DNA of 64,000 bases from assembly GCA_046154185.1 (NCBI GenBank), contig JBJXGE010000068.1, positions 5,178 through 69,177 of the forward strand, written 5' to 3'. The DNA comes from Planctomycetota bacterium. Lineage in GTDB: Bacteria > Planctomycetota > UBA8108 > UBA1146 > JAJFFE01. Numbering within the stretch: the first letter of the stretch is position 1; each line of letters begins with the position of its first letter. Of the stretch, positions 20,917 through 40,724 are shown one piece after another. The notes below the pieces were generated by a model, which saw only the letters and a list, made by a program, of their open reading frames with translations, was not told where the DNA came from and did no database searches. The position numbers and the translations under genes are program-made.

Positions 20917-21864
20917 ATGGCCAAGAGCATCGAATACAACGCCACGCTGACGGAACGCATCGACGTGACGGACGCGTTGACGATTTTTCGGTTTCGTCCC
21001 GACACGGCGTTGCCGGCTCAGAAGTGGTTCGTGCCCGGCCAGTACGTGGTGATCGGACTCAACAACGAAGCCCAACCGGACCTCGGCGCCGTGCAGCGCC
21101 CGATGTCGATCTCGTCGGCGCCGCAGTTGAATGAGTACATCGAGTTCTATATCCGCTACGTCAATCAGCCGAGCTCGAAGAATCCGCTGACGCATTTGCT
21201 TTGGAAACTCCGCGCCGGCGGGCGCGCGTTCGTGCGAACGACGGCGAAGGGGAAGTTCACGGTCAAGGATTTGATCGGCGACGCGGACCTACGGCTCAAG
21301 GTGTTCGTCGCGGCGGGGACGGGGCTCGCGCCGTTCTTGTCGATCGTGCGGAGTCATCTGCACGAAAATCCCGGCGCGTCGCTCGCGCAGTTCGCGATCA
21401 TCCACGGCGCGAGTTTTCCCGCGGACCTCGGCTTTCGCACCGAGCTGGAAGCGCTCGCGAGCCGGCATGGGCTCCGCTACATTCCGACGGTAAGTCGTTA
21501 TCGGGAGTTTCCCGATTGGCGCGGCGCTCGCGGTCGTGCGGAAGATTGCTTTGCGCCCGAGCGTCTGGCGGACACTGAAGCGCGGCTCGGTCTCAAGCCC
21601 GGCGAATTGCGGCCCGCGCACGCGGCGGTTTTTATCTGTGGATTGCAAGGAACGATCGGTTCGACCATCGAGCGCCTCGTCGCGCGCGGGTTCGTGCCCG
21701 ACGATCGCGGGCTACGCAAGGCCTTCGCGGTTCCCGAAGCTATCCCGGCCGCGCTCTTCTACGAGCAATACGACAGCGATCCGGTCATCGACCTCACGAA
21801 CGCGGCCCGCGTCGCGGAACTCGCAAGCATGCTGAAGTCGGCGCTCGCGGACGCGCGTGCATGA
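20917..21864 (+). CDS. Ferredoxin-NADP+ reductase-type FAD/NAD(P)-binding oxidoreductase
   Basis: FAD-binding R-x-Y-S-like motif RPMSISSAP and NAD(P)-binding motif VFVAAGTGLAPFLSIV. Length and domain order fit the FNR family. Confidence 0.8.
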   Translation: MAKSIEYNATLTERIDVTDALTIFRFRPDTALPAQKWFVPGQYVVIGLNNEAQPDLGAVQRPMSISSAPQLNEYIEFYIRYVNQPSSKNPLTHLLWKLRAGGRAFVRTTAKGKFTVKDLIGDADLRLKVFVAAGTGLAPFLSIVRSHLHENPGASLAQFAIIHGASFPADLGFRTELEALASRHGLRYIPTVSRYREFPDWRGARGRAEDCFAPERLADTEARLGLKPGELRPAHAAVFICGLQGTIGSTIERLVARGFVPDDRGLRKAFAVPEAIPAALFYEQYDSDPVIDLTNAARVAELASMLKSALADARA

Positions 21865-24267: not shown

Positions 24268-24330
24268 GAACGTCACCTCCGAAGGCGGAGACGACGCGCG
24301 ACGCGTCAATCTTGCGATGAATCCAAGCGC

Positions 24331-24372
24331 GCAAAAAAGAGCCGAGACGCAGAGCACTACTCCGCGTCTCGG
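24331..24372 (-). terminator. Rho-independent terminator after the dockerin/LTD gene
   Basis: On the minus strand, stem CCGAGACGC (24364-24372), a 13-nt loop and stem GCGTCTCGG (24342-24350) are followed by CTCTTTTTTG. The hairpin lies 30 nt past the stop at 24402. Confidence 0.75.
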
Positions 24373-24401
24373 TCATTGCGCTACGGTTCAGCCGTCGAGC
24401 T

Positions 24402-26651: not shown

Positions 26652-27058
26652 GCTCACTCCTTCTGAGCGCGGCGAACTGCGCTCGAAACACACCTACCCA
26701 CGATGAAAGCCCAGTAAGTCCACGAAGCGACGCGACGCAGGTCGCGCGCGCACTTCTCGTGTGACGGTAAATCGTGCGCGTGAGGATACGGTAAATGCCA
26801 ATCGCGCGTCACGCAAAAAGCGGTCAACTCGCGAAGGTCTGCGCCGGACCGCGATTCGCGCAACAGGCGGGACCTCGATTGATCGACGGCGCGCCCGAAA
26901 AAGTTTGCGCACTCGCACGTAGCTCGGCTGTGCGACATTGGATTGTGACAAATTCGCGGAGCGCTACTATGTGCCGCGTTGGGCGGGAGATTCGAATTCG
27001 CGTTCGAGTAACGCACCACGACGCCGGTGGTCCGGCTGGCTCTGGCAGGATTGAATTA

Positions 27059-27634: not shown

Positions 27635-29314
27635 TTACTGGGTCGTGCCGACCGTATCCATGTCGACGCCGAAGTTGGCGTAACTGCCGAGCTCTTCCAG
27701 CATCTGTTGGAATTCGGCGAGCGCGAGCACGCTCGCGTCACCGCAGAGGCCGGTCGCAGCGCTGATCATGAATCGATCGTAAACGGTCGAGTCTTCACCA
27801 CCGAGATCGAGCCCGGTCTCCAGCGCTTGGAGTCCGGCGAGCGCGCTGGTCACGAGCGACTCGTTGTAGGTGATGTTCAAGTTACCCGTTGCTTCAATCT
27901 CAAAGTCGTCGATGCGATCCACGGCGGCAAGCTCTTGTGCCATGCCAACCGAAAGACTGCCATTAATGGTGAGGTTCGAAGTCGCGCCCGACGCCTCGAT
28001 CTCGATGCGCGATCCGAACATCGCGACGAGACCATTTACTGTGAGCGACGAACTCGATTCGACTTCGAGCTCCGTCTCGTGCGAATTGGCTTCCGCCAAG
28101 CACAACACGGAACCATTGATCGTCAGGTTGGATGGGCGCCGACTACCGGTAGGTACGTAGGTGGACGACGAGTTCATGACCTCGAGGGACGCTTCTGTGG
28201 TATCGCTCGCGAGCAACACGAGGTTGCCGTTGATCGTTCCTTGCGTGCCGAAAGTGTAAAGCAGGTCGCCGCCGTCCCCATCGTAACCAAGCACATAGAT
28301 GTCGCCGGTCCAATTGAGGTTCAGGTTTTTGCGCGGTCGCGTAGTGTGCTTAATGATCAGTGTGCCGTTGCCCGTGATCGTTTGGCCGACCGTGTCGAAG
28401 ACGCGGTCTTTGCCGATCGTGCCGGCCTCGATGACCGTCACTTCCGGATCGCCGGCCGTGCCCCAGGTCGCGTTGCCGAGCACGCGGGTTGTGATCGTGC
28501 GATCCGCGCTGCTCGCAAGCGCCAGTACGGCGTCGCGCAGGTCCGTGCGGTACTGGTTCAACTCCGCGGCGCTGAGAAGCGACGAGGATTGCTGAATGAT
28601 CGGCAACTCGATCGGCCCAGCCGTTGGGTGTTCGTACGTGCTAGTGACATCGCCCGCGAGTTCGGTGCCATTAATCGTGCCGGCCGCGACCGCATTGCCA
28701 AGCGTCTCCATCACAGCCGCGTAACCCGCGGCGGACGAAAACACGAACGCGGGGTCTTCGCCGCCGTCGATCATGAAGCCGTTTGGGCTCATCCCCGGGA
28801 AGACCGGGTCGACGATTGGACCGGAAATGCTGACGGCCGATGGTTTTGGGGCCAAGATGAAGCTGGTTTCCGCTTGCACGACGCCTTGCGAGCTGCGAAC
28901 AACTAGCGGGTTCGAGAAACTCGGAACCGCGGCGAGCGCAACGATGATGTTGCGCGTGCCGTCTTGCTTCACGTAAGTGCGGTACTCGCCGACTGCCTGG
29001 CCGTTCGAGTCCGAGAACACGAGCGGCGTCGCAATTCCCATCGCGCCGAGCCCATTGCCGGTGCTGTCGGTCTGCGCTGCGACTTCTGCGAACGCAGCGT
29101 GCAAGCCCGCGTTGGCGAGATAATCAGCGCGCAGCATCGTCAACGAGTCGGAAGCGGAACGGGCGTTGACGCGCTGGACTGACAGCATGGAATCGGCCAA
29201 TATCAGCACTACCACGAGAACGATCATCACGCCGACAAGAACGCTCCCGCGTTCGCGTGAGCGTCGTTCAGCAAGAGAGTGTGAACACACGAGGACCTCC
29301 TTCGTCTTTGCCAT
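27635..29314 (-). CDS. PilX-N-terminal-domain protein fused to a large repeat (beta-solenoid-like) domain; candidate pilus tip or minor-pilin-associated protein
   Basis: The N-terminus ERGSVLVGVMIVLVVVLILADSML matches the PilX N-terminal hydrophobic segment. The C-terminal half has the recurring motifs GTINGNLVLL, LTINGSVLCL, LTVNGLVAMF and LTINGSLSVG. It is the last gene of the pilV/pilW-like operon. Confidence 0.6.
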   Translation of the reverse strand: MAKTKEVLVCSHSLAERRSRERGSVLVGVMIVLVVVLILADSMLSVQRVNARSASDSLTMLRADYLANAGLHAAFAEVAAQTDSTGNGLGAMGIATPLVFSDSNGQAVGEYRTYVKQDGTRNIIVALAAVPSFSNPLVVRSSQGVVQAETSFILAPKPSAVSISGPIVDPVFPGMSPNGFMIDGGEDPAFVFSSAAGYAAVMETLGNAVAAGTINGTELAGDVTSTYEHPTAGPIELPIIQQSSSLLSAAELNQYRTDLRDAVLALASSADRTITTRVLGNATWGTAGDPEVTVIEAGTIGKDRVFDTVGQTITGNGTLIIKHTTRPRKNLNLNWTGDIYVLGYDGDGGDLLYTFGTQGTINGNLVLLASDTTEASLEVMNSSSTYVPTGSRRPSNLTINGSVLCLAEANSHETELEVESSSSLTVNGLVAMFGSRIEIEASGATSNLTINGSLSVGMAQELAAVDRIDDFEIEATGNLNITYNESLVTSALAGLQALETGLDLGGEDSTVYDRFMISAATGLCGDASVLALAEFQQMLEELGSYANFGVDMDTVGTTQ

Positions 29315-29334
29315 TTCAGCGGTTTTCTGCAGAT

Positions 29335-29952
29335 CTATGTTCGATTTCGTAACGCGACCGTCGTCGTTGAAGTCCGTGACGCCGGGTTGGCGCCAGGGCG
29401 TGTTGGTCGCACGACTGTCAGCAGGATGGTAATCGCGTTCTGATTCAGTGCTGTGCGCGTGATCGAAAGCGCCGAAACGCCGTCGGCGATGACGATCGGT
29501 GTGCCGCCCGCTTCCGTGCGCATGAGGCGCATCTCGTCTACAAGACCATCGCCGTCGTCATCAGCGCCATTGGCGGGTAATTCGTTTTGAGCGGGCTGAA
29601 GATCGAACGTGACGTTGCCGCTCCAGTCGGCGGGGTCACCATTCATGGCGATGCGCCGCTGCAACGTGATTTGCTGAGCGGTAGTTTCCAGCCCTGGCGG
29701 ATGTGACGTGACGTGATCGACGCCGGACTCGTCGGTTCCGCTATTCGCGACATCCTCGACGATTCGCGCTACGGCCGAGCGCAGCACGCGATCAAGATCG
29801 TTCGAATACATGATCGACGCATACGAGTTGCTGGTGTCGGACATCGATTGCCAGACGGCGACAAACGCCGTGACGAAAAGCGTCAACATGACGGTGACTT
29901 CGAGTAGTGTCATGCCGCGTTCGGTTGGCCGCGCGGGCTGGTGAGGACTCAT
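29335..29952 (-). CDS. Prepilin-type N-terminal cleavage/methylation domain protein (PilW/pseudopilin-like minor pilin)
   Basis: ATG 29952 has GAGGGAG 5 nt upstream. The class III signal motif is RG|MTLLEVTVMLTLFVTAFVAVW. Confidence 0.75.
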   Translation of the reverse strand: MSPHQPARPTERGMTLLEVTVMLTLFVTAFVAVWQSMSDTSNSYASIMYSNDLDRVLRSAVARIVEDVANSGTDESGVDHVTSHPPGLETTAQQITLQRRIAMNGDPADWSGNVTFDLQPAQNELPANGADDDGDGLVDEMRLMRTEAGGTPIVIADGVSALSITRTALNQNAITILLTVVRPTRPGANPASRTSTTTVALRNRT

Positions 29953-29963
29953 AGCCACTCCCT

Positions 29964-30371
29964 CTAAGGTGCGCTGTCGGCGAGCAGTGTCGACATTTCG
30001 ACAGTGTTATCGCCAAGGATTCCGCTCCAACGCGCTATCACCGTAATGAGCAGCAGCGCTGGATTGGTGCTGTCGACGCTCACCGAACCGACCGTCGCTT
30101 CGCCGGTGATCGGTGTCAACGGCGCGGCGGTAAACGTTGCACTATCAAACGCCGGAATCGCGGCGTAGTCCGAGGCGATGATGGTTTCTAATTGAGCTCG
30201 TACTGCTTCGCGTGCGATGTCCATCTCCTGGACTGAGCTATTCGCGCGCATTGTCGAAGCGATACCGGCCGCGAGGCCGACGACGATGACGGTCAGGATT
30301 GATAGCGCTGTCACGAGCTCGATGATCGTGAAGCCTTGCGATTCCCCAAGCGGGGCGCTGCGGCGAGTCAT
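29964..30371 (-). CDS. Prepilin-type N-terminal cleavage/methylation domain protein (PilV-like minor pilin)
   Basis: ATG 30371 has GAGGGGTGA upstream; the track ORF extends to 30437. The class III signal motif is QG|FTIIELVTALSILTVIVVGLAAG. About 135 aa. Confidence 0.75.
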   Translation of the reverse strand: MTRRSAPLGESQGFTIIELVTALSILTVIVVGLAAGIASTMRANSSVQEMDIAREAVRAQLETIIASDYAAIPAFDSATFTAAPLTPITGEATVGSVSVDSTNPALLLITVIARWSGILGDNTVEMSTLLADSAP

Positions 30372-30493
30372 ACTTTTCACCCCTCTGTCTCGGCGAGCTC
30401 GACATGCTGATGCCTCGCGCTGTCGCTCGAGACTCAACGGTGCCGAGTCAAAGCCTCATCTATTCCTATCATCCTGCCACCGTGGAGGCCTTG

Positions 30494-30548
30494 CACCGCG
30501 GAGCTCGTAGCGAAGCGCGGTGTTGCAAGCGGATTGGCCACGCGTGGC
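30494..30548. promoter_or_regulatory. Inverted repeats in the divergent control region; possible activator binding sites
   Basis: CACCGCG (30494-30500), a 15-nt spacer, then CGCGGTG (30516-30522), embedded in TTGCACCGCG...CGCGGTGTTGCAA. There is also a perfect 12-nt palindrome, GCCACGCGTGGC, at 30537-30548. Both lie 60-115 nt upstream of the sigma54-like element. Confidence 0.25.
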
Positions 30549-30609
30549 TCCGGAATTTTTGTTCTTCAGGAAGAACAGCCGCGCATGGTTGTTCCGCACG
30601 ACCGCGCCC

Positions 30610-30626
30610 GGGCACGAGTTCTGCAT
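30610..30626 (+). promoter_or_regulatory. Sigma54 (-24/-12) type promoter candidate upstream of the cytochrome cluster
   Basis: GGGCACGAGTTCTGCAT compares with the consensus TGGCACG-N4-TTGCW. GG at 30611-12 and GC at 23-24 have the canonical 12-nt register. It lies about 55 nt upstream of ATG 30679, in an intergenic region. My rough composition-based estimate is about 0.3 chance hits of this quality in the window's intergenic DNA, so the call is suggestive only. Confidence 0.4.
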
Positions 30627-30678
30627 GCGGGGCGATCGCTGGCCAACAGTTCGCGGCTGGGTTGTGACGATATGACTT

Positions 30679-32094
30679 ATGAACCGTGTCGTCGCTCCGG
30701 CGAGGGAGATTCCATTGAGTTTTTTCGCGATATTGCCGGTGTTCGCGCTGTTCGTGCTCGTTCTCAGTTTGCTCGGATTCTGGCAGTACCGGATCGGCCA
30801 GGAGCAGCGCACGCACGCGCTCGCTGAGATCGAGGAGGCGCGTGATCGCGGCACTGACAAACCGCTCGCCCAGCATCCGCTCATCGATGTGCAAGCCTGC
30901 ATCGGTTGCGGGAGTTGCGTCGCTGTGTGTCCCGAGGAGGGGGTGCTCGGGCTCGTCAACGGTGTCGCGCACATTATCAACGGCGTGCGCTGCATCGGCC
31001 ACGCGCGCTGCGCGGAGGTCTGCCCAGTAAATGCGCTCTCCATCGGGCTCGGCGACATCTCCAAGCGCACGGATATCCCGACGCTGAGCGATGACCTCGA
31101 GACGTCGGTGCCTGGTATCCACATTGCGGGCGAACTCGGTGGGTTCGCGTTGATTCGCATCGCGGTCGAGCAAGGGACGCGCGCGATGGACAGTATCGCC
31201 GAGAGTCTCGGCGGCGAGTCGAGACCGGCGCGTGCCGCCGACAACGTGGCGGATGTGCTCATCGTCGGCGCCGGTCCCGCGGGCATCGCCGCGGCTTTGC
31301 GCGCCAAGGAGCTACGGCTTCATTCCGTGACGATTGACCAGGACGACATCGGCGGGACCGTGCGCAAGTATCCGCGCCGAAAACTCACGCTCACGGGGTC
31401 GCTCGTGCTGCCGCTGTACGGACGCGTCAAACGCGAGGAGTTCCTCAAGGAAGAGTTGATCGAGTTTTGGGAAGATCTCATTGCCGAGCAAGGACTCCGC
31501 ATCAACACGGGCGTGAAGCTGCTCGGCATCGACGCGACCGATGTTGGCTTCGAAGCACGCACTTCCGCCGGGCCCGTGCGCGCGCGACGTGTCTTGCTCG
31601 CGCTCGGCCGCCGCGGCACACCGCGCCGACTCGGCGTGCCGGGCGAAGAGTCCGAGCGCGTGCTTTACCAACTCATCGACGCGGCGACGTTTCGCAACGA
31701 GCGCATCCTTGTCGTCGGTGGCGGCGACAGCGCCGTCGAAGCGGCGACCGCGCTCGCGAATCAGCCCGGCAATCACGTCACGCTTTCGTATCGGCGCGCC
31801 CATTTCACGCGACTCAAGTCGCGCAATCTCGAGCGCATTGAGCGCTACATGAAACACCAGCAGGTGCAGGTGATTTTCGACTCCGACGTCACGGAGATCG
31901 AAACCGGCGCGGTGAGACTCGTGCGGCGCGAAAACGGCACGACACGCACCGTGCAAGTCGCAGCCGACTATGTGTTCGTGCTCGTGGGCGGCGAACCGCC
32001 TTATCCGTTGCTGCGCGAGATGGGCGTGCGATTCACCGGCGACTCCGCCGGCTCACCGCTGACGAGTGCAGCTTCCGCTGCCGAGTCGAGCTGA
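30679..32094 (+). CDS. Membrane-anchored 2x[4Fe-4S] ferredoxin-domain / FAD- and NAD(P)-binding oxidoreductase
   Basis: N-terminal TM helix (FFAILPVFALFVLVLSLLGFW). Two ferredoxin Cys clusters, CIGCGSCVAVCP and CIGHARCAEVCP. Two dinucleotide folds, VLIVGAGPAGIAAAL and ILVVGGGDSAVEAA. The start is ATG 30679, or TTG 30715 with AGGGAG 7 nt upstream. Confidence 0.8.
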   Translation: MNRVVAPAREIPLSFFAILPVFALFVLVLSLLGFWQYRIGQEQRTHALAEIEEARDRGTDKPLAQHPLIDVQACIGCGSCVAVCPEEGVLGLVNGVAHIINGVRCIGHARCAEVCPVNALSIGLGDISKRTDIPTLSDDLETSVPGIHIAGELGGFALIRIAVEQGTRAMDSIAESLGGESRPARAADNVADVLIVGAGPAGIAAALRAKELRLHSVTIDQDDIGGTVRKYPRRKLTLTGSLVLPLYGRVKREEFLKEELIEFWEDLIAEQGLRINTGVKLLGIDATDVGFEARTSAGPVRARRVLLALGRRGTPRRLGVPGEESERVLYQLIDAATFRNERILVVGGGDSAVEAATALANQPGNHVTLSYRRAHFTRLKSRNLERIERYMKHQQVQVIFDSDVTEIETGAVRLVRRENGTTRTVQVAADYVFVLVGGEPPYPLLREMGVRFTGDSAGSPLTSAASAAESS

Positions 32095-33259
32095 GAGGAC
32101 GAGACGCCCAGTGCAGCCGCCACTACCCGCGCACCAGGACGATTCGGAAGACTTGCCGATCGTGCTGCTCCCGGACGACGACGAGTACGACGATCTCGTC
32201 GCGTCGGTGGCGACGGCATCCATTGTCGCCACGATGCAAGAACTGGCGGAAGTGCGACCGCATGCATCGCCCGCGCGGCCGCCGGCTCCGGTCGTCGAGC
32301 GCATCGAAGTCGGCACCGAAATCGATGGGCTCGCGCAGCTTTCGGATGAGATCGACCATGAGGTCGATGACGAGCTGCGCCGCGAGGCGCAAGTTTCGTT
32401 GCGGCGCATGGCGCGCGTCGCCGTGGTGCTGCTCCTGTCGATGCTCGCACTCCTCTTCGTGATCGCGCGCCCCTACTACCAGCTCGCGCCCGCGGCGAAA
32501 CCGTTTCACCACTTGCATGACGCGTTGCGGTCGTCCGGAGCGCTCGGCCTTGCGCTCGGTGTCGGCGGCACGGGGCTGATGGCGGCCAGTTTGGTGTACT
32601 TGATTCGCAAGCGTTACGTCTGGCGCGGATTCGGCACCGTGCGTGAGTGGTTGAACTTCCACATCGTCGCCGGAGTGCTCGGCCCGACGCTCGTGCTTTT
32701 TCACGCAAATTTTCACCCGACCAGCGCGGTCGCATTGTTCGCGCTCATCGCGATGATGATCGTCGTCGCAAGCGGCGTGATCGGGCGCTATGTGATCGTG
32801 CACATGCCGCACTCGCTCTCCGGGCGCGAAGTCGAAATCGAGGAACTGCGCCGTCGCCTCGTCGTGTACCGCCAGAAGCTCGAAGAACTCGGCGTCGATA
32901 GCGAGCTGTTGCGCGCCTCCGGCGTGCACATCCACATCGACCGACCGTGGTGGTTTCCGCGTCCGCTCGGGCGTTGGCTGGATCAGCAGCGAGGGCGGCG
33001 GCTCGCCATCCAGCAATTGCAGGAATCGCTGCGCGCGCGCGGCAATTCCGACATCAACGCGCGGCGCGTCATGGTGCTGGCGCGCCGACTCTATCGCGAA
33101 CGGGCGTGGCTAGTCTGGTACCAGAAGACCCGCGCGGTGATCGCCTCGTGGCGTTTTCTGCATCGTTGGCTTGCCATCACACTTTTGGTCGCGGTCGCCT
33201 ACCACATAGTGCTGGCGACGAAATATGGACAGCTGTGGATCTTTGGAGGTGGCCGCTGA
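32066..33259 (+). CDS. Polytopic membrane protein with two H-x13-H pairs in TM helices; candidate di-haem b transmembrane electron carrier (PepSY-TM/FoxB-like)
   Basis: FH(199)IVAGVLGPTLVLFH(213) is at nt 32660-32704 and LH(366)RWLAITLLVAVAYH(380) is at nt 33161-33205, each with exactly 13 residues between the His. There are about 5 hydrophobic helices, and LHRWL resembles the PepSY-associated TM motif. The start is ambiguous: GTG 32066, GTG 32111, ATG 32234 or ATG 32408. Confidence 0.55.
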   Translation: MQLPLPSRAERTRRPVQPPLPAHQDDSEDLPIVLLPDDDEYDDLVASVATASIVATMQELAEVRPHASPARPPAPVVERIEVGTEIDGLAQLSDEIDHEVDDELRREAQVSLRRMARVAVVLLLSMLALLFVIARPYYQLAPAAKPFHHLHDALRSSGALGLALGVGGTGLMAASLVYLIRKRYVWRGFGTVREWLNFHIVAGVLGPTLVLFHANFHPTSAVALFALIAMMIVVASGVIGRYVIVHMPHSLSGREVEIEELRRRLVVYRQKLEELGVDSELLRASGVHIHIDRPWWFPRPLGRWLDQQRGRRLAIQQLQESLRARGNSDINARRVMVLARRLYRERAWLVWYQKTRAVIASWRFLHRWLAITLLVAVAYHIVLATKYGQLWIFGGGR

Positions 33260-35067
33260 TGCTGCTGCATCCAAGAACGCTGCTATTGGTCGGGGGCTTG
33301 AGTCTCGCGGGGCTCGGCCATCTGTTGTTCGTCGCTTCGCCGTTGCCGGGCAATCTGGCCCAAGCGCACTCCCGCATCGCCGGGCTCACCGACTCGACGA
33401 GTTGCGCGACCTGCCACCGGGCTGGCGGAGTCAACGATGGGTGCCTCAGTTGTCATACGGAAATTGCGACGCAGCTGAACGAGCGCTCGGGCTACCACCA
33501 TTACTTGCTGGCCGATGAGCCACGTCAGTCTTGCGGCGATTGCCACGCAGAGCACAACGGACACGACTTCCCGTTGATCAGCGATATCTCGTGGGGCGCA
33601 CAAACGGCGGCCGCGTTTCGGCACCCGCACGTCGACTTCGGTTTGCACGGCAAGCACGACACGCTCGCATGCGAGAAGTGCCACACGCCGGACTTGAAAC
33701 TCGTCCTGCCTGGGTTTGCGACCTTGCCGCGCGATGAGACGCTACTGGGTCTCTCACAAGATTGTCGCGCGTGCCACGCCGACTTCCACACGGATGGTCT
33801 CACGCCGCCGTGCGGAGCGTGTCACGGTCAGGACTCGTTCCAACCGCCCGTGCATTTCGATCACGCCGTCCATTTCCCGCTCACGGGTGGCCACGCGAAA
33901 CTCTCGTGCGACAACTGTCACCGTTTCCCCGCGTCGACGCCTGTGCCCGCCGTAGCGTCGGATCACACGTTGGCGGTAAACGTGACACCCGCTCTTTCGC
34001 ATCCGCCGGCGCCGAGTCGGCTGCTCCCATTTCCATTTGATGATGTGCGCGGCGGGACCTGCGGCGAATGCCATCCGACGCCGCATCGCGTCGATTTCAG
34101 CGAAGCTTGCGAAGTGTGCCATTCGACGCACGATCCGGTGTGGACGAACGCGGCGACGGCGATGACACCGGAGCGGCACGCGTCGACCGGTTTTCGACTG
34201 GATCCGCCGCATGCCGAGGTCGCTTGCATCGGTTGTCACCCTGCGGATCTTGTGTTCAAGGAACGGCATCCCGATCCGCGCGCACCGGGATATGAGCGGC
34301 GCCAAGATAACTGTCAAGGTTGTCACACGGATGCGCACGGCGGCCAGTTTCGCGGCCGTCACGACGGTTGTCTCGACTGCCACGACCCACATGCGTTCAC
34401 GCCACCGATATTCGGTCACGCAGCGCACGCAAGGCTGTTTGCGTTGACCGGCGCGCACGCCGCCGCGTCGTGTGATGCGTGTCACAAAAAGGAAAGCGCG
34501 CTCGCTGTTCGCCAGTTCGTCGGCACGCCGCACGAATGCCAGGTTTGTCATCAGGATCCACACGCCGGTCAGTTCTCGGTCGAGCTTGCCAGCGGCGATT
34601 GCAACTCGTGCCACGACGGCACCTCGACCACGTTTTCGATTCGACCGTTCGATCACCAAGCGCGCACCGGTTTCGCGCTCACCGGCGCCCATGCGCAGGC
34701 GGATTGCGTCGGCTGTCATCGCGAGCAGTCTTTCGAGCACGCGGGTTCGACCGTGAAGGCCCGGCGCTATCGCGACACGGCAACCGAGTGCCAGTCCTGC
34801 CACAAGGATGTCCATCGCGGGCAATTCGCCGACTACGACGCGTGCACGATCTGCCATAAGTCAGAGTGGAAGTGGACCGACGTGGTCTTCAACCACAACG
34901 AGCAATCGCGCTTCCCGCTCGAAGGCGCGCACCGGCGCGTACCGTGCACTGGTTGCCATTTGTCCTCAGAAACACCGGACGGCGATGTCGTCGTCCACTA
35001 CAAACCGCTCGGACGCGAGTGCAAGGATTGTCATGCGATACCGCCGAACCCCGTCCGCGATCGCTAG
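33259..35067 (+). CDS. Multihaem c-type cytochrome, 20 CXXCH sites, with an N-terminal signal or anchor helix
   Basis: The start ATG 33259 overlaps the upstream stop (TGATG) and has GGAGGTGG upstream; the track ORF 32947 is over-extended. The N-terminus is MLLHPRTLLLVGGLSLAGLGHLLF. I counted 20 CXXCH sites (CATCH, CLSCH, CGDCH, CEKCH, CRACH, CGACH, CDNCH, CGECH, CEVCH, CIGCH, CQGCH, CLDCH, CDACH, CQVCH, CNSCH, CVGCH, CQSCH, CTICH, CTGCH, CKDCH). Confidence 0.92.
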   Translation: MLLHPRTLLLVGGLSLAGLGHLLFVASPLPGNLAQAHSRIAGLTDSTSCATCHRAGGVNDGCLSCHTEIATQLNERSGYHHYLLADEPRQSCGDCHAEHNGHDFPLISDISWGAQTAAAFRHPHVDFGLHGKHDTLACEKCHTPDLKLVLPGFATLPRDETLLGLSQDCRACHADFHTDGLTPPCGACHGQDSFQPPVHFDHAVHFPLTGGHAKLSCDNCHRFPASTPVPAVASDHTLAVNVTPALSHPPAPSRLLPFPFDDVRGGTCGECHPTPHRVDFSEACEVCHSTHDPVWTNAATAMTPERHASTGFRLDPPHAEVACIGCHPADLVFKERHPDPRAPGYERRQDNCQGCHTDAHGGQFRGRHDGCLDCHDPHAFTPPIFGHAAHARLFALTGAHAAASCDACHKKESALAVRQFVGTPHECQVCHQDPHAGQFSVELASGDCNSCHDGTSTTFSIRPFDHQARTGFALTGAHAQADCVGCHREQSFEHAGSTVKARRYRDTATECQSCHKDVHRGQFADYDACTICHKSEWKWTDVVFNHNEQSRFPLEGAHRRVPCTGCHLSSETPDGDVVVHYKPLGRECKDCHAIPPNPVRDR

Positions 35068-35881
35068 CACCGTCGCCGGTGCATTGTTGTTCGCCGGTGG
35101 GTGCCTCCTCTTGTGGAGTTGTGCGGAACTCTTGCCACGCGAGGGTTGGAGCGGTCGTTGGGGACCGCTCGTGCCGCACACGAAGTTTCCGGGTGATTGC
35201 GGCATTTGCCACATCCCAGACGACTGGAAGACGCTGCGCGACAACTTCGAGTTCGATCATGCACAGGAAACCGGCTACGTGTTGGAAGGTGCGCACAGTC
35301 GTGCCGCGTGCTTGCGTTGCCACAATGATCGCGGGCCGATTCTCACGTACGTCGAACGCGGTTGCGGCGGCTGTCACGTCGATCCGCATCGGGGTTCGTT
35401 GGGGCTCGACTGCAGCGAGTGCCACAACCAGGAGCTATGGGAACCGCTCGGGCTCATCGCCGATCACGCGCGCACGCGCTTCCCGCTCATCGGTATGCAC
35501 GCACTCACGGCTTGCGAGTCTTGTCACCCGCGTTCGACCACGGCCGACTTCGCCGGCGCGCCGGTCGAGTGCCACTTATGCCATCAGCGCGATGCGCTCC
35601 TCGCGCAGCCGAGCCATGTTCCCAACGGCTGGACGGTGAATTGCCATCGCTGCCATTCGCCGAGCGATTGGGACGCGCCGCTCTTCAACCACGATTTCTT
35701 TCCACTCATTGGTGGCCACGCCAACGTCGCGTGTGCGCAATGCCACCCGGGCAGCTTATTCACGCCAATCTCGCCGGCGTGCTTTGCATGCCACCAGCAG
35801 GACTATCTCGCCGCGCCGAACCATGTGGCGAGCGGCTTCTCAACTGACTGCACGTTGTGTCACACGATCGCGGCTTGGTGA
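35033..35881 (+). CDS. Multihaem c-type cytochrome, 10 CXXCH sites
   Basis: In-frame ATG 35033 overlaps the end of the upstream gene by 35 nt. The hydrophobic N-terminus is MRYRRTPSAIASTVAGALLFAGGCLLLWSC (signal peptide, possibly a lipobox). Sites: CGICH, CLRCH, CGGCH, CSECH, CESCH, CHLCH, CHRCH, CAQCH, CFACH, CTLCH. Confidence 0.88.
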   Translation: MRYRRTPSAIASTVAGALLFAGGCLLLWSCAELLPREGWSGRWGPLVPHTKFPGDCGICHIPDDWKTLRDNFEFDHAQETGYVLEGAHSRAACLRCHNDRGPILTYVERGCGGCHVDPHRGSLGLDCSECHNQELWEPLGLIADHARTRFPLIGMHALTACESCHPRSTTADFAGAPVECHLCHQRDALLAQPSHVPNGWTVNCHRCHSPSDWDAPLFNHDFFPLIGGHANVACAQCHPGSLFTPISPACFACHQQDYLAAPNHVASGFSTDCTLCHTIAAW

Positions 35882-35884
35882 GGA

Positions 35885-37675
35885 GTGGCTATCTTGAACG
35901 ACTCATCAAGTCATGAGCTGACGAGGAGCGGACCGCGCGCGCGCGCGGCCGGTCTTTGCCTCGCGCTCTTGTGTGTCGTTTCACTCGCGTTGGCGCAAGA
36001 GCCGCCGGCGGAACCGACGCCGGAGCCGACGGCTCCGAGTGCGCCCGCGGCGCCGATCGTCGAGCTTCCGCCGTCGCAGCCGCCGCCTGTGACGCCGATC
36101 GAGTGCGCACTCCTCTATGAAACGGCCGATGGCGTCTATGTGGATGCGGGCGTGTTGCAAGGCATCGCGGACGGCCAGACCGGCTGGATCCTGCGCGGTG
36201 GCATACAGACGGCGCGTTTCGAGGTCGTCAAGGCCGCGCGCGCGTCGACTTTTCTGCGGATTCTGTCCGATCGCGGGCCGTTGTTTCCGCGGGCCGGCGA
36301 GCGACTCTCGTTGTTGCTCGACTCGGCGCCGGTTGCACCGCCCGCGCCGGAAGATCCCCGCGCCCCGTCGCCGACGCTCAAGAACGGCGACCCTGACGCG
36401 CCGTTTGCCCCGCTCCTCGCGCCGCCCGGCATGGGCGAAACCGGTTACACCGGCGGTCGCAATGTCGCGCACGGACGCATCAATCTTCGGCAACATGTGC
36501 AGCTCGCGAAGAACAACGACCTCGATTATTGGCGGACGCAGCTCGGCGGCTCCGGCAGCGTCGAGCGCCCCGACGGCACACCGTGGGCGCTCGAATGGCA
36601 CGCGAATTTGTCGTGGCGCGGCGGCCAAGCGCTGCAAGACTATGAATCGCACGATCGTCGTCGGTTCGATCTCTACCGACTTGCATTCTTTCGTCGTTTT
36701 GATGACCGCAGCTTCGTGCGCGTCGGCCGGTTCCTGCCCGGCGAATTGCCATCCATCGGATATCTCGACGGCATTCAGGGCGAGAAAGCCGTGATGCCAC
36801 GCGTGCGGCTTGGCGCATTATTCGGACTGCGACCGGATCGCGAAGACTTGCACCCGTGGTGGCGCGAGCCGACGATTGTGACGTACCTCAGTTACAGTGC
36901 GGCTACGGATCGTTCGCGTTACTCGCTTACGACCGGAGTCCTCGGTTCCTCCTATCGCGGCAAGCCGGATCGACTCGCGTTGCTAGCCGATCAGTTCCTG
37001 TCGCACGGGGACTTTTCCCTCTACTCGAGTGCGGAAGTCGATTTCGATTCCGGGGACGATGAGACTCGCCGCGGCGTCGAACTCACGCGGCTGGACTTAT
37101 CCTCGACGTATCGCGTCTCGAAAGGCTTTCGCTTGCGCGGCGGCGTCGATCGCTTCGAGCTTACGGACACTGAAGCCGAACGCGATCTCGTCGACCAGAT
37201 CGTGCTGATCGATTCGTTTTTCTTCGATCAAGGGTACTGGCGCTATTTTGTCGGCGCCGCACACGATCTTTCGGAGCGCTGGATGGTGGATGAGGAAGTG
37301 TCGTTCACAGACTCGGACAAAGCCGACGATGGAGTGCGCTACCAACTCGGGCTCACGCGACGCGGCGTGTTCGCGGCGTCGGCCGCGAGCGCGACCTTGC
37401 ATGTCTACCGGGTGCTTGGCAACGAGACGGACGGGCATGGCGCGCGGTTCTCGGGGTTCTTTCCCGTTGGCCCACGATTCGCGTTGCAACCGTCACTCGG
37501 TGTGCGCTTCGCCGACTATGAACTCGAATCGAGTCAGCTTTGGACGGCGGACGCGGGCATGCGAGCGCATTGGACGCTGGCGCGCAATTGGTCGCTCGTT
37601 GGCGGTTTCTCGTACGCGCGGACACAAGATAACGATCGATTGCTCGTCGATATCGGCGTGACGCTTTGGTGGTGA
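35885..37675 (+). CDS. Outer-membrane beta-barrel (porin-like) protein candidate
   Basis: Signal peptide (AAGLCLALLCVVSLALA|QEP), then a Pro-rich linker (PPAEPTPEPTAPSAPAAPIVELPPSQPPPVTP). Many short alternating hydrophobic/polar stretches follow, and the C-terminus is ...FSYARTQDNDRLLVDIGVTLWW with a terminal aromatic residue. The start is GTG 35885, or TTG 35894 with AGGAG 8 nt upstream. Confidence 0.6.
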   Translation: MAILNDSSSHELTRSGPRARAAGLCLALLCVVSLALAQEPPAEPTPEPTAPSAPAAPIVELPPSQPPPVTPIECALLYETADGVYVDAGVLQGIADGQTGWILRGGIQTARFEVVKAARASTFLRILSDRGPLFPRAGERLSLLLDSAPVAPPAPEDPRAPSPTLKNGDPDAPFAPLLAPPGMGETGYTGGRNVAHGRINLRQHVQLAKNNDLDYWRTQLGGSGSVERPDGTPWALEWHANLSWRGGQALQDYESHDRRRFDLYRLAFFRRFDDRSFVRVGRFLPGELPSIGYLDGIQGEKAVMPRVRLGALFGLRPDREDLHPWWREPTIVTYLSYSAATDRSRYSLTTGVLGSSYRGKPDRLALLADQFLSHGDFSLYSSAEVDFDSGDDETRRGVELTRLDLSSTYRVSKGFRLRGGVDRFELTDTEAERDLVDQIVLIDSFFFDQGYWRYFVGAAHDLSERWMVDEEVSFTDSDKADDGVRYQLGLTRRGVFAASAASATLHVYRVLGNETDGHGARFSGFFPVGPRFALQPSLGVRFADYELESSQLWTADAGMRAHWTLARNWSLVGGFSYARTQDNDRLLVDIGVTLWW

Positions 37676-37834
37676 GTGCTCGGCAAGAACGGGTGGATTT
37701 GCCGGCACACTTGCCTCGTAGTCGGCAATAAACGGGCGGCAACGGCGCTCGTCTCGAATCGCCAGTTCGTTGCTGACGGCGCGGCCCGCCGATTGCCTGC
37801 ACCTTATTGGAAATAGTCTTAGCGGGAGGAATCT

Positions 37835-40615
37835 ATGAGCGGGCTGCAAGTACAAAACCGCGTGAGAATTGTCTTCCTTGTCGGCGTTGTCATCGCGGCG
37901 AACGGCTGCACGAGCAAGTCGGAGGACGACCACGAAGTCGCCGCGACTTCCGAGTCCTGCATGCAATGCCACAACGGCTCGTTCCACGATGATTACAGCG
38001 GACCCGGACTTGAGAATCCGCACCCGTTCCCGGGCGCCGGTTCGATTCGTTGCACGACTTGCCATGGCGGTCACGGCGACGCGGTCGGCGCGACAGCGAG
38101 CCACGTTCCGCCGCCGCCGGAGATCGGTGACGAGCAGTTCCAAACGCAGAATGCGCAAGCGTACTTCAACCGTTTGACGCTCGCGGGCATCGATAAGTAC
38201 GAAGACTACGTCGTGAACGGCGTCACGTACTCGGCGCTCGACTACCTGCAGTTCGTGAATCCAGGCGACATTCGTGTCGTCAAGGAAGGTCGTAGCTGCG
38301 GACAGTGTCACATGCCGCACGCCGAGTGCGTGGCGAAGAGTCCGCTCGCGACCGAGGTCGGAATTCTCTCGGGTGCGCGTTACGCGATGGGCGCCGCGAA
38401 TGCGGTGCCGGCGAATCAAGGGTTGTACGAAGACACCGCCGGCGACTACGCCTGGCGCGCGGTCACGGATCCGGACTTCGTCTTCGTGCCGACGACAATT
38501 GGACCAGTCGGTGAGTTAATTGAGTATCCGGTCTACAGCGTGCGCAATCAGTTTGGGCCGGATGACATCTTCCTGAATCCGAATTACCTCGCCGCTGCGC
38601 TCGACGACGACGTGAACCCGGACAACAGTGTCATCACCGGCTCGCCGCTCGCGAACTTGTTTCACGAGCAGATTTCGTTCACGTGCGGTGACTGCCACTT
38701 GGGTAGCGCCGGCGCGAATAATCGTTACGGCGACTTTCGCTCGTCGGGTTGCACGGCGTGTCACATGCGCTACTCCTCAAGTGGCCGGAGCGACTCGACG
38801 GACACAAACATTCGCAAGAACGAGCCGCTCGATCCGGACGACATCGATGATCCGGAGCGCGCGCACGTCGACCGCCACTTGATTCGCAGCGTCGCACAGA
38901 CGCTTGCGAGCGGGGAGACGATTTCCGGCATCGACGACCACACGTGCGCGGGCTGTCACCAAGGATCGAACCGCACCGTACTGCAATACTGGGGCATTCG
39001 CCTCGACCAAAACCAAGACGTGCGGCGCGGCAACCAGTACCCCGCGAACCCGGCTTCGCACGTGAACACCGCGCTTGATACGCGGCTCTTCGATCCTGTG
39101 ATCAACAACAATACGTTTAACGGCCGCAACGCGAATCAGTACTTGCTCGCCGAAGACTACGACGGCGACGATCGCGACGACACGCCGGCCGACGTGCACT
39201 ACGAAGCGGGCCTTGGTTGCATCGACTGCCATGGTAGCCATGACGTGCACGGCGGCGTGGTCGGCGATCCCGCGAACTCGCCGCTCCTGAGTCGCCAGGA
39301 GCAAGCGGTCGCGATTCGATGCGAGAGCTGTCATGGCGGTGTTGACGCGTATGCGCCGGTCGCAAGCGCGACGACCTACAGCGGCGCGACCGCGGACTGC
39401 GCGATGGACGCGGAAGGCAACGCATTGAAGCACGTCGTGCGGGAAGCGGATGGCTCGTACATTCTGACGAGCCGCTTGACCGGCGCGCGCCATTACGTGC
39501 CGCAGACGCGGGACGTGGTTGTCGATAGTGGGCGCATCAATCCGCTCACGCAGGAGCCGGTGTACAGCGCGAAAGCGTCGTACGCGATGGGCCGCGCCGA
39601 CGGCGACCCGGCGAATGGTCTCGGGCCGATTCAAACCGGCGCCGTCACGCCGGGCTTCAGCCACATGGACAACATGAGTTGCGTCGCTTGCCACGCGTCG
39701 TGGACAAATAACTGCGTCGGTTGTCACTTGAAGGGCGAGTACAACAACGGCAATAACTTCTCCAACATCACGGGTGAGCGCATCGTGTTCCGGCAGTTGA
39801 ACGCGGACTTCACTTATCAGACGCCGGTGCCGTTCCAACTCGGCGTCGACACGCACAACAAAATCAGCGTGCTCAGTCCGAACACCGAGGCGCACTTCCA
39901 GTGGCGCGACATGAACGGCGACTTCTCGCAGGTGTTTTCTTTCACCGACCGTAACGGCGGCGGCAACAACCCCGCGCATGGTTTGCCGTCGCTCTCGCAC
40001 AACGTCATGATGCCGCACTCGATCCGTGGCAAAGTCAGCGATGAGAACGAGGGGCCACGTTACTGCAACGCGTGTCACCTGACCGACGAGGGACTCGCCA
40101 ACTACGCGGCCGAATTCAACGCGTTTCGCACGGCCATGTCGACGAGCGACTGGGGCGCGCTCGACTTCAATACGTTGCGGTCGCACATCGGCCTCAACAC
40201 GAATAACCAGATCAACTCGCCGATCTGGGTCCACATGGTGGCGGGCCTCGGCTCCGGCATCTTCCTCTTCGACGATCGCGGCTGTCCGCAGAACCCCATC
40301 GACGACAACGAGGACCGCTTCGGCTGCGACGGTGTCGCGCCGAGCGCGCTCTTCGATCCTTTGCTCGTCGCGCGGAACCTCGACGCCGTCGTCGACGCTT
40401 CGGGCGCGTCGAACGGCTCGAATAACCACTCGATGCTGGCGCCCGGCGTCGGGCCTAACTTGCGCGACGGCGCGCAGAACCCGAACCAATCCGGACCGCT
40501 CGGCGCGACGCTCATTCGTCGCCTCTCCGATCCCGCGACCGGAATCACCCTCGACTCCTGGATCGACGCCGACGGCGCGCTCCAAGGCGACGCGGCGATT
40601 CACGTGCCGCAGTAG
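37835..40615 (+). CDS. Large multihaem c-type cytochrome lipoprotein, 11 CXXCH sites in 926 aa
   Basis: GGGAGGA RBS. Signal peptide with lipobox VVIAANG|C. Sites: CMQCH, CTTCH, CGQCH, CGDCH, CTACH, CAGCH, CIDCH, CESCH, CVACH, CVGCH, CNACH. Long haem-free stretches lie between the sites. Confidence 0.88.
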   Translation: MSGLQVQNRVRIVFLVGVVIAANGCTSKSEDDHEVAATSESCMQCHNGSFHDDYSGPGLENPHPFPGAGSIRCTTCHGGHGDAVGATASHVPPPPEIGDEQFQTQNAQAYFNRLTLAGIDKYEDYVVNGVTYSALDYLQFVNPGDIRVVKEGRSCGQCHMPHAECVAKSPLATEVGILSGARYAMGAANAVPANQGLYEDTAGDYAWRAVTDPDFVFVPTTIGPVGELIEYPVYSVRNQFGPDDIFLNPNYLAAALDDDVNPDNSVITGSPLANLFHEQISFTCGDCHLGSAGANNRYGDFRSSGCTACHMRYSSSGRSDSTDTNIRKNEPLDPDDIDDPERAHVDRHLIRSVAQTLASGETISGIDDHTCAGCHQGSNRTVLQYWGIRLDQNQDVRRGNQYPANPASHVNTALDTRLFDPVINNNTFNGRNANQYLLAEDYDGDDRDDTPADVHYEAGLGCIDCHGSHDVHGGVVGDPANSPLLSRQEQAVAIRCESCHGGVDAYAPVASATTYSGATADCAMDAEGNALKHVVREADGSYILTSRLTGARHYVPQTRDVVVDSGRINPLTQEPVYSAKASYAMGRADGDPANGLGPIQTGAVTPGFSHMDNMSCVACHASWTNNCVGCHLKGEYNNGNNFSNITGERIVFRQLNADFTYQTPVPFQLGVDTHNKISVLSPNTEAHFQWRDMNGDFSQVFSFTDRNGGGNNPAHGLPSLSHNVMMPHSIRGKVSDENEGPRYCNACHLTDEGLANYAAEFNAFRTAMSTSDWGALDFNTLRSHIGLNTNNQINSPIWVHMVAGLGSGIFLFDDRGCPQNPIDDNEDRFGCDGVAPSALFDPLLVARNLDAVVDASGASNGSNNHSMLAPGVGPNLRDGAQNPNQSGPLGATLIRRLSDPATGITLDSWIDADGALQGDAAIHVPQ

Positions 40616-40724
40616 AGGTGATGGAGGGGATGTTCGATTCGCGCTCGCCGCGAGTTAGAACGGTTCGGCTTCGAAATCGCCGACGCTGTTCTTCAGACGC
40701 CGAACGCGCTACTCTCTCGCGATC

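Follow-up and report, generated by a model that had tools for sequence, protein, structure and literature searches.

A conserved iron-sulphur flavoprotein partners the predicted di-haem membrane protein of PCC3-type porin-cytochrome clusters

The window analysed here is a 64,000-nucleotide stretch of contig JBJXGE010000068.1 (positions 5,178 to 69,177 of the forward strand; assembly GCA_046154185.1) from a Planctomycetota bacterium. At 30679–40615 it carries six genes, A to F, all on the + strand and arranged head to tail (Table 1). Gene A encodes an iron-sulphur (FeS) flavoprotein, gene B a membrane protein with two histidine pairs, genes C, D, and F multihaem cytochromes, and gene E a putative porin. 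The window contains one A, one B, and three multihaem open reading frames (ORFs). A and B have their closest relatives in metagenome-assembled genomes (MAGs) of Planctomycetota, and the order A-B-C-D-E-F is kept in two planctomycete contigs of 9.2 and 7.9 Mb (L011 and L012). Identity to the counterparts in these contigs is 61–62% for A, 42% for B, 45–49% for C, 55–61% for D, 39–45% for E, and 61–68% for F. B is the fastest evolving of the six components, which is why a word-based search returned just 26 relatives of it.

The stop codon of B overlaps the ATG start codon of C in the sequence TGATG (33257–33261), and the ORFs of C and D overlap by ~35 nucleotides. A Shine–Dalgarno sequence (GAGAGGA) is followed 10 nucleotides later by GTG 32111, and the rival start of B, GTG 32066, overlaps the end of A; translation of B probably begins at GTG 32111, not at GTG 32066. 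Residues of B are numbered from 32066 throughout. A scan of 30300–40800 for promoters and terminators returned sites no more numerous than in shuffled sequence.

Table 1 Coordinates of the features discussed, in the window unless another locus is named
Feature	Position	Strand	Description
Gene A	30679..32094	+	471 amino acids; a start 12 codons downstream gives the 459-amino-acid form of the gene caller
A transmembrane (TM) anchor	30721..30777	+	residues 15–33; Kyte–Doolittle 2.73; helix 15–57 in the AlphaFold2 (AF2) model
A FeS motif 1	30898..30933	+	CxxCxxCxxxCP, CIGCGSCVAVCP, residues 74–85
A FeS motif 2	30991..31026	+	CxxHxxCxxxCP, CIGHARCAEVCP, residues 105–116
A FAD site	31267..31284	+	GxGxxG = GAGPAG, residues 197–202; G197, G199, P200, and G202 invariant
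A NAD(P)H site	31717..31797	+	GGGDSA, residues 347–352, plus Y-R-R/K motif, residues 371–373
Gene B	32066..33259 (ORF)	+	likelier start GTG 32111; protein of the gene caller 382 amino acids
B acidic N-terminal motif	32153..32182	+	LPIVLLPDDD, residues 30–39
B TM3	32648..32710	+	W195-x3-H199-x13-H213 (FH-x13-H)
B SGxxG	32771..32785	+	in TM4, S236-G-V-I-G240
B loop TM4–TM5	32795..33148	+	~118 residues, arginine-rich, helical in the AF2 model
B TM5	33149..33223	+	W362-x3-H366-x13-H380 (LH-x13-H)
Gene C	33259..35067	+	20 CXXCH; N-terminal signal or anchor; Pfam Cytochrome_C7, 4e-23
Gene D	35033..35881	+	10 CXXCH; c-type cytochrome, possibly a lipoprotein
Gene E	35885..37675	+	596 amino acids, signal peptide; putative outer-membrane beta-barrel (porin)
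Gene F	37835..40615	+	926 amino acids, 11 CXXCH; Cytochrom_c3_2, 1e-12
Mo-hydroxylase genes	40725–44325		directly downstream of F; large subunit MoCoBD_1/2; FAD subunit FAD_binding_5, CO_deh_flav_C
cNMP-type partner, locus L054	411–2969		10-haem cytochromes follow
cNMP-type partner, locus L056	7986–10364		10-haem cytochromes follow
cNMP-type partner, locus L058	3158–5659		10-haem cytochromes follow

From its sequence, A is predicted to be a membrane-anchored, NAD(P)H-dependent FeS flavoprotein composed of a TM helix, a two-cluster ferredoxin domain, and an FAD/NAD(P) domain of the thioredoxin reductase (TrxR) fold. It matches the Pfam families Pyr_redox_3 (4e-42; 144.9 bits, cut-off 30), Pyr_redox_2 (2e-28; 100.5 bits), and Fer4_10 (9e-10); the matches to Pyr_redox_3, Fer4_10, and Fer4_2 exceed the curated cut-offs. 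The best match among PDB sequences is YpdA/Bdr (7a7b, 1e-22), and the AF2 model (mean confidence, pLDDT, 80) retrieves YpdA/Bdr, TrxR, and TrxR-like ferredoxin–NADP+ reductase (FNR) as top matches in Foldseek. Residues 190–460 are closest to YpdA/Bdr and the TrxR-like FNRs by both sequence and structure. The score of A against the YpdA equivalog model TIGR04018 is 150.6 bits, below the cut-off of 339.9. We also considered A as a thioredoxin reductase or other disulfide reductase and rejected this assignment, as the CxxC disulfide is missing; there is no cysteine beyond residue 116, and A therefore cannot be a disulfide reductase.

The A homologues mostly have 1–3 residues before the helix and a basic WQRRI stretch after it, which indicates an N-out, C-in orientation. 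No twin-arginine (Tat) signal is present. On the basis of the helix flanks and the missing Tat motif, the catalytic domains of A are placed in the cytoplasm, in a manner similar to those of RnfB. A periplasmic location of A was considered and rejected: neither a Tat nor a Sec signal is present, NAD(P)H is found in the cytoplasm, and the gene fusions described below have a topology that puts A there as well.

The four cysteines of FeS motif 1 (C74, C77, C80, and C84) are invariant in two alignments of A homologues. Serine or threonine replaces the second cysteine of this motif in 13 A loci (within L013–L057). Of 120 close homologues, 119 have a histidine in place of the second cysteine of FeS motif 2, as do all 35 loci with the B-associated type of A. 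The canonical CxxCxxC occurs in motif 2 of two loci only (L048 and L053, Myxococcota), both without B, so that the CxxHxxC signature of A tracks its association with B. The substitution suggests that the distal cluster is ligated by three cysteines and one histidine (Cys3His), or is a 3Fe cluster. A His-ligated distal FeS cluster is typical of electron exit sites, for example in [NiFe]-hydrogenase. A first-pass annotation of this DNA had assigned to A one TM helix, two ferredoxin-type clusters, and two Rossmann motifs; the helix, the first cluster motif, and both Rossmann motifs are where it placed them, but the second cluster motif is the non-canonical CxxHxxCxxxCP.

Besides the invariant residues of the FAD site, G347–G349, Y371, and R372 of the NAD(P)H site are invariant, and YRR or YRK is found in 109 of 120 homologues. 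The Y-R-R/K motif falls in the alignment on the 2'-phosphate site (HRR) of thioredoxin reductase, from which we infer that A prefers NADPH.

A profile search of 1.84 billion representatives retrieves a B family of 5,235 members at E<=1e-3 and 1,270 at 1e-30; members of ten clusters of the family are annotated only as 'hypothetical protein'. Conservation was assessed in a set of 21 relatives and in a set of 112 diverse relatives drawn from 50%-identity clusters. The two exact H-x13-H pairs noticed in the first-pass annotation (H199/H213 and H366/H380) are borne out: all four histidines are invariant in both sets, and the pairs are therefore not a matter of chance. In the 112 relatives, W362, G237, and G240 are invariant as well, W195 is nearly so, and S236 is at least 90% conserved.

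The core of B spans residues ~110–397, and the homologues are 275–310 amino acids long. Five TM helices are found by hydropathy and in the AF2 model (pLDDT 83.7), which has a long helical insert between TM4 and TM5. The mean net charge over the 112 sequences is +1.8 for the N-terminus, +5.2 for loop 2, and +9.8 for loop 4, as compared with −0.4 for loop 1 and +0.2 for loop 3. By the positive-inside rule, this pattern is unambiguous: the N-terminus and loops 2 and 4 are predicted to be cytoplasmic, and loops 1 and 3 and the C-terminus periplasmic. Therefore, TM3 and TM5 are parallel. H199 and H366 lie four residues in from the cytoplasmic end of their helices, and H213 and H380 fourteen residues further out. 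The depths match, and the location of the four histidines on two helices, on which the first-pass proposal of a di-haem protein depended, is thus supported by the predicted topology. This placement is the geometry that would be expected of two stacked bis-His haems. By this geometry and by analogy with known haem proteins, B would be a five-TM inner-membrane di-haem b cytochrome.

The arginine-rich loop between TM4 and TM5 is a candidate docking surface for A. The acidic N-terminal motif, of the form [IL]P[IV][IV][IL][LV]PDD, is found only in planctomycete-type B proteins (P0002, P0003, L011, and L012) and is missing from the A–B fusions; a role in tethering B to A is a speculation. Unusually long proteins of the B family (465–679 amino acids) were checked for fusion to A, and none has a flavoprotein domain. 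The only Pfam matches in their N-terminal extensions are a single SPOR domain and a single TPR-like hit.

An inner-membrane protein of this type was defined earlier, together with the PCC3 and PCC4 porin-cytochrome clusters, by He et al. (2017, Front Microbiol 8:1584, PMC5566968). It has ~300 amino acids and five TM helices, with SGXXG on TM4 and WX3HX13H on TM3 and TM5 (PMC5566968). B shows every published sequence feature of this protein, namely the size, the five TM helices, the SGXXG, and both WX3HX13H motifs. In the published clusters, the neighbours of this protein are a porin, a periplasmic multihaem cytochrome with a median of 21 haems, and another large cytochrome, which correspond here to the candidate porin E, C, and D/F, respectively. 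The PCC3/PCC4 membership of B rests on the published motifs and on loci in related genera. In particular, full-length alignments connect C to the cytochromes with 21 and 24 haems that neighbour B in proteobacterial PCC3-like loci (Thiodiazotropha, Rubrivivax, and Burkholderiales); the Rubrivivax loci (L033 and L043) encode a 24-haem cytochrome of ~648 amino acids, like the one reported from L. cholodnii. The lineages and haem counts of the C-like loci agree with those reported for PCC3 (PMC5566968). Because B fits the motif description of He et al., the statement in the first-pass annotation that no porin-cytochrome system with an inner-membrane module of this kind had been described is wrong.

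The published definition of PCC3 comprises four genes and does not include a flavoprotein (PMC5566968). Later papers reuse the four-gene definition without giving a function for the inner-membrane protein. Literature searches on HX13H and multihaem proteins, on PCC3 with NADH or a flavoprotein, and on quinone-independent extracellular electron transfer returned only He et al. and papers citing its definition. B and the cluster type are thus already known, from bioinformatics only, and the flavoprotein partner A and a quinone-independent model appear to be unreported.

We next describe the association of A with B across genomes. One genome per GTDB species was scanned with an A alignment, and the fetched loci were searched with purpose-built hidden Markov models (HMMs) for B or multihaem cytochromes within 8 kb of A. 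B is present in 31 of the 37 loci with full-length A, and multihaem cytochromes (4–67 CXXCH) are present in 30 of 37. Neither B nor a multihaem cytochrome is found in any of 34 control loci with ordinary TrxR/YpdA relatives (0/34 for each). In the opposite direction, an A-type gene is adjacent to B in all four independent B lineages examined (a Steroidobacteraceae-type cluster represented by many contigs, two planctomycete-type contigs, and one other). The co-occurrence with cytochromes in other genomes, which the first-pass reading called for, is therefore observed, and the pairing of A with B extends over ~12 phyla. The carriers belong to Planctomycetota, Gemmatimonadota, Acidobacteriota, Bacteroidota, Nitrospirota, Calditrichota, Omnitrophota, Neomarinimicrobiota, Eisenbacteria, and Alpha-, Beta-, and Gammaproteobacteria. 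They include a cultured flavobacterium, Thermobacterium salinum TK19130 (= Luteirhabdus salina, Flavobacteriaceae; L026), with B followed by A and then by 23- and 19-haem cytochromes.

The gene order varies: B precedes A in 16 loci, the two genes are divergent in 13, A precedes B in planctomycetes, and they are fused in 2. The pairing is kept despite this variation, indicating that linkage has been selected for and is not simply that of an inherited, frozen operon. The two fusions, in the Planctomycetota MAGs OFTM151 and OFTM36, are single ORFs of 758 codons (L014, 7950–10223) and 854 codons (L016, 7758–10319), stop to stop. From N- to C-terminus, they consist of the TM anchor, the CxxCxxC and CxxHxxC motifs, the FAD/NAD domain, a short linker, and the five-TM region with both WX3HX13H motifs. 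As Rosetta-stone evidence, the fusions argue that A and B form a physical complex. They also indicate that the C-terminus of A lies on the same side as the N-terminus of B, that is, in the cytoplasm.

A second type of partner stands beside other B-type proteins. It has ~800 amino acids and combines Pyr_redox_3 with two cyclic-nucleotide (cNMP)-binding domains and a Fer4 dicluster domain (Table 1), which suggests cNMP-regulated electron input. For porin-less clusters, the supplementary table of He et al. lists an unnamed 'other redox protein' of 412–805 amino acids (PMC5566968), and the ~800-amino-acid partner matches those of 796–805 amino acids. Taken together, the two types of partner point to a general rule, by which a B-type protein pairs with a cytoplasmic NAD(P)-flavoprotein with FeS clusters.

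E has weak OMP_b-brl and MetA-pathway matches only; a counterpart with 32–45% identity occupies the same position in four loci (L007, L008, L011, and L012), and the porin label is based on position and size. The cytochrome F is probably extracellular or a lipoprotein. Models of the known conduits MtrCAB/MtoAB and Geobacter Pcc/Ext do not recognise the cluster: scores reach 18 bits against a cut-off of 192 for DmsE and 67 against 800 for ExtM (gene F).

We propose that A and B constitute a split, NOX-like transmembrane NAD(P)H dehydrogenase that serves as the inner-membrane entry of a PCC3-type porin-cytochrome conduit, a reading to which we give somewhat better than an even chance. A would be anchored at the cytoplasmic face by its single N-terminal helix, and NAD(P)H would be oxidised at its FAD, in a TrxR fold with no redox-active disulfide. 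Electrons would then pass in one-electron steps from FAD to the [4Fe-4S] cluster and to the distal Cys3His cluster, and from there to the haem b on the cytoplasmic side of B, with H199 and H366 as its ligands. The periplasm-side haem b, held by H213 and H380, would receive them next and deliver them to the 20-haem C, whose gene is translationally coupled to B. From C, the route to an extracellular acceptor would lead through D (10 haems), the porin E, and F (11 haems). The whole chain would have ~46 redox centres and would not require quinone. The module would be a non-pumping sink that regenerates NAD(P)+ and conserves no energy itself. Outward flow would be the favoured direction: with most extracellular acceptors it is energetically downhill, and the membrane potential, negative inside, helps to drive it. 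As an electron valve, the module would resemble in its role the flavin-based route by which Gram-positive bacteria transfer electrons to the outside.

More tentative is the extension of this proposal to PCC3-type conduits as a class (~5,200 B representatives at 50% identity, with A–B pairs in ~12 phyla), which would be wired to the NAD(P)H pool, not to quinone, through an unrecognised split or fused FeS-flavoprotein/di-haem-b dehydrogenase; we put its chances slightly short of even.

The family assignment of B bears on the haem step. B matches nothing above threshold in Pfam, NCBIfam, or the PDB sequences. The first-pass annotation had likened B to cytochrome b, ferric reductase/NOX domains, and PepSY-TM reductases, and HMM searches for the PepSY_TM, ferric reductase, and cytochrome b561 families did not place it in any of them. 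PepSY_TM does not match the B of the window at E<=0.01 and is absent from the 25 families most matched by the 112 relatives (E<=1). Ferric_reduct (PF01794) does not match the B of the window either, and gives sub-threshold matches in 4 of 112 relatives (best 1e-4). B has five TM helices and not the six of the PF01794 type; it shares with that family bis-His pairs on TM3 and TM5 spaced 12–14 residues, which is a functional resemblance only. The B of the window scores 16–18 bits against Ni_hydr_CYTB/cytochrome b561 (PF01292; cut-off 30.1), a weak match confined to TM5. Weak sub-threshold matches on TM5 recur among the 112 relatives, to DUF4405 in 25, to Ni_hydr_CYTB in 10, and to Ferric_reduct in 4, and a remote kinship of B to cytochrome b561, Ni-hydrogenase cytochrome b, and DUF4405 is possible. 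By analogy, B would work like a ferric reductase domain, yet it is not assignable to PF01794, PepSY_TM, or cytochrome b561. A structural family was sought as well and rejected: the Foldseek matches of B are noise (F-BAR domains and ABC transporters), and no structural membership can be claimed.

Several observations weigh against the proposal that A and B form a dehydrogenase feeding the conduit. The AF2 model of B has no match in the PDB at E<=0.001 (best E=1.1), and cytochrome b, NOX, and STEAP are not among its matches. Comparison of the B profile with E. coli MsrQ and E. coli YodB by hhalign gives probabilities of 0.1% and 0.2%, respectively, so that the di-haem assignment is made by analogy and not on demonstrated homology, and the predicted haem binding is drawn from histidine geometry alone. 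Six of the 37 A loci are without a detectable B; among them, two are of the canonical-ferredoxin type, and at least one other (L042) stops just past A at a contig end. Several PCC3 hosts are iron oxidisers, in which an outward NAD(P)H sink is unexpected. Finally, B could have a quinone site, as proposed by He et al. (PMC5566968), and MsrQ binds ubiquinone (PMC12525009).

One A locus, in a Caldithrix MAG (L013), has A together with 25-, 11-, and 9-haem cytochromes and no HMM-detectable B. The ORF of its 9-haem cytochrome (2736–3527) itself bears a W-x3-H-x13-H string. The membrane partner may have been replaced, or may have diverged, in this locus.

The last of the points above is the core of the alternative that survives best. 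In the published PCC3 model, B is a quinone-coupled cytochrome b; A and B could then be a complex-II-like NAD(P)H:quinone oxidoreductase, or A an accessory input, with the cytochromes served through quinol or the distal haem. The flavoprotein-FeS-di-haem layout of Bacillus subtilis succinate:menaquinone reductase is a general precedent for such an arrangement, and the recurrent weak Ni_hydr_CYTB and DUF4405 matches point the same way. He et al. proposed a quinone-active B by analogy with the cytochrome b of bc1 and [NiFe]-hydrogenase (PMC5566968), and MsrQ is a binder of ubiquinone (PMC12525009). However, no quinone-site motif is known for B, the gene of B is translationally coupled to that of the 20-haem C, the fusions join B to A and not to a quinone-handling subunit, and electrons would travel a shorter way by passing directly from haem to haem into C. 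We consider the quinone-coupled model unlikely, though worth keeping in view; it is compatible with the coupling of A and B and merely adds a quinone branch.

Less probable still is a role in periplasmic redox maintenance, in which a low flux of reducing power would serve to hold the large cytochromes in the reduced state, to protect or repair them, or to acquire iron reductively, as in MsrQ-Fre/MsrP, FRE, and FoxB. MsrPQ provides the precedent of a split NOX-like system for a periplasmic enzyme (PMC12525009). No energy is conserved when electrons flow outward from NAD(P)H, and the module is found in aerobes and iron oxidisers; both points would suit such a role. The module is linked, however, to complete conduits of porin and extracellular cytochromes with up to 67 haems, which would be costly for housekeeping.

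The first-pass annotation held that the chain could run backwards just as well during metal oxidation. In that mode, extracellular Fe(II) or a cathode would supply electrons that pass through the cytochromes, the haems b, FeS, and FAD to NAD(P)+. The occurrence of PCC3 clusters in the genomes of iron oxidisers (PMC5566968) and the upregulation of one copy of the inner-membrane protein in iron-oxidising cells of Sideroxydans CL21 would agree with this direction. The redox gradient and the membrane potential both oppose it. NAD(P)+, at ~−320 mV, lies far below the Fe(II)/Fe(III) couples at neutral pH, the inside-negative potential opposes inward electrons, and A and B are without any proton- or ion-coupling element; reverse flow is therefore very unlikely rather than an equal option. 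That B binds no haem, its invariant histidines serving another metal or a structural or transport role and its link to A reflecting some other shared function, would fit the lack of a Pfam family and of any fold or profile match to a solved haem protein, but is highly improbable given H-x13-H pairs at matched depths on parallel helices, each after W-x3 and invariant in 112 sequences, in a protein that stands consistently between a cytoplasmic electron-input protein and periplasmic multihaem cytochromes.

For the entry or exit of electrons at the inner membrane in PCC3-type conduits, there is one published proposal, a quinone link. The conserved and sometimes fused partner A offers a concrete, testable alternative, predicts outward flow assisted by the membrane potential, and casts doubt on PCC3 genes as indicators of iron oxidation. 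If the proposed NAD(P)H route is true, a quinone-independent, NOX-like route would be added to those for electron disposal or respiration onto extracellular acceptors. If it holds for PCC3-type conduits as a class, these clusters would be outward electron valves and not iron-oxidation machinery, and the FeS-bearing, TrxR-fold version would be an independently evolved bacterial counterpart of NOX. Practical material is available in the fusions of MAGs OFTM151 and OFTM36 and in the cultured carrier TK19130.

The surroundings of the cluster hold several other genes. The molybdenum (Mo)-hydroxylase genes downstream of F were considered as members of the system and rejected, as they are missing from the syntenic loci L011 and L012. 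They are followed by guaA and guaB on the − strand, and together these genes look like a purine/xanthine cluster unrelated to the conduit. Immediately upstream of A, two − strand regions (21901–26693 and 27635–30437) hold genes for two very large secreted repeat proteins of 818 and 763 amino acids and a run of prepilin-type genes (type II secretion or pseudopilin-like), all transcribed divergently relative to A. A 315-amino-acid ORF with an FNR-type NAD_binding_1 domain (20917–21864) is located 9 kb upstream of the cluster.

Among known systems, the quinol dehydrogenases CymA, ImcH, and CbcL resemble the proposed module as inner-membrane entries to periplasmic multihaem cytochromes, but they oxidise quinol. 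They are c-type or b/c-type cytochromes without a flavoprotein. No Pfam or NCBIfam match to quinol dehydrogenases of the CymA/ImcH/CbcL type is found here.

A cytoplasmic flavoprotein or FeS module that is connected through a membrane cytochrome b to the periplasmic side is known from the di-haem succinate:menaquinone reductase (SQR) of Bacillus subtilis, the quinol:fumarate reductase (QFR) of Wolinella, and the Tmc and Hmc complexes of Desulfovibrio. This SQR has a flavoprotein-FeS-di-haem architecture with a distal quinone site; its transmembrane step is aided by the membrane potential, and the periplasmic partner of Tmc/Hmc is a multihaem cytochrome. The anchors of complex II differ from B in that their four histidines are distributed over four helices, in another fold and with other substrates. 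No sequence similarity to SQR/QFR or Tmc/Hmc is detected.

As regards the flavoprotein, the CxxC disulfide is missing from the TrxR-like ferredoxin–NADP reductases as it is from A. Compared with these enzymes and with YpdA/Bdr, A adds a membrane anchor and a fused two-cluster ferredoxin domain with the Cys3His motif.

An experimentally studied precedent is E. coli MsrQ (YedZ), through which electrons supplied by a cytosolic NADH oxidoreductase reach periplasmic MsrP (PMC12525009). It is likewise a split system, in which a cytosolic NAD(P)H oxidoreductase serves a membrane haem protein with a periplasmic partner (PMC12525009). MsrQ differs in belonging to the ferric reductase domain family, in having one haem and FMN, in its soluble and genetically unlinked reductase, and in its molybdoenzyme acceptor. 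The partner of B, in contrast, is a membrane-anchored protein with FeS clusters, encoded in close linkage to B or fused with it, and a multihaem wire would take the place of the molybdoenzyme as acceptor.

NOX, FRE, and STEAP transfer electrons from cytoplasmic NAD(P)H through flavin and two bis-His haems b on TM3 and TM5 (H-x13-H) to an outside acceptor, which is the route proposed here. NOX differs in being a single polypeptide with six TM helices and an FNR-type dehydrogenase without FeS clusters, whereas A and B have five TM helices in the haem-binding candidate, a separate TrxR-fold flavoprotein (rarely as an N-terminal fusion), and two FeS clusters.

The closest comparison is with PCC3/PCC4, with which the cluster of the window shares the features of B, a ~20-haem periplasmic cytochrome, a porin, and an extra large cytochrome. 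For the inner-membrane protein, He et al. drew an analogy with the ferric reductase domain and with the cytochrome b of bc1 and [NiFe]-hydrogenase, and proposed on this ground two haems b and electron exchange with quinone (PMC5566968). The variant in the window departs from PCC3 in its gene order (A-B-C-D-E-F), in having a 10-haem cytochrome in addition, and in the acidic extension at the N-terminus of B. The published cluster thus consists of four genes and is quinone-linked, whereas here the FeS flavoprotein is a conserved fifth component, sometimes fused to B.

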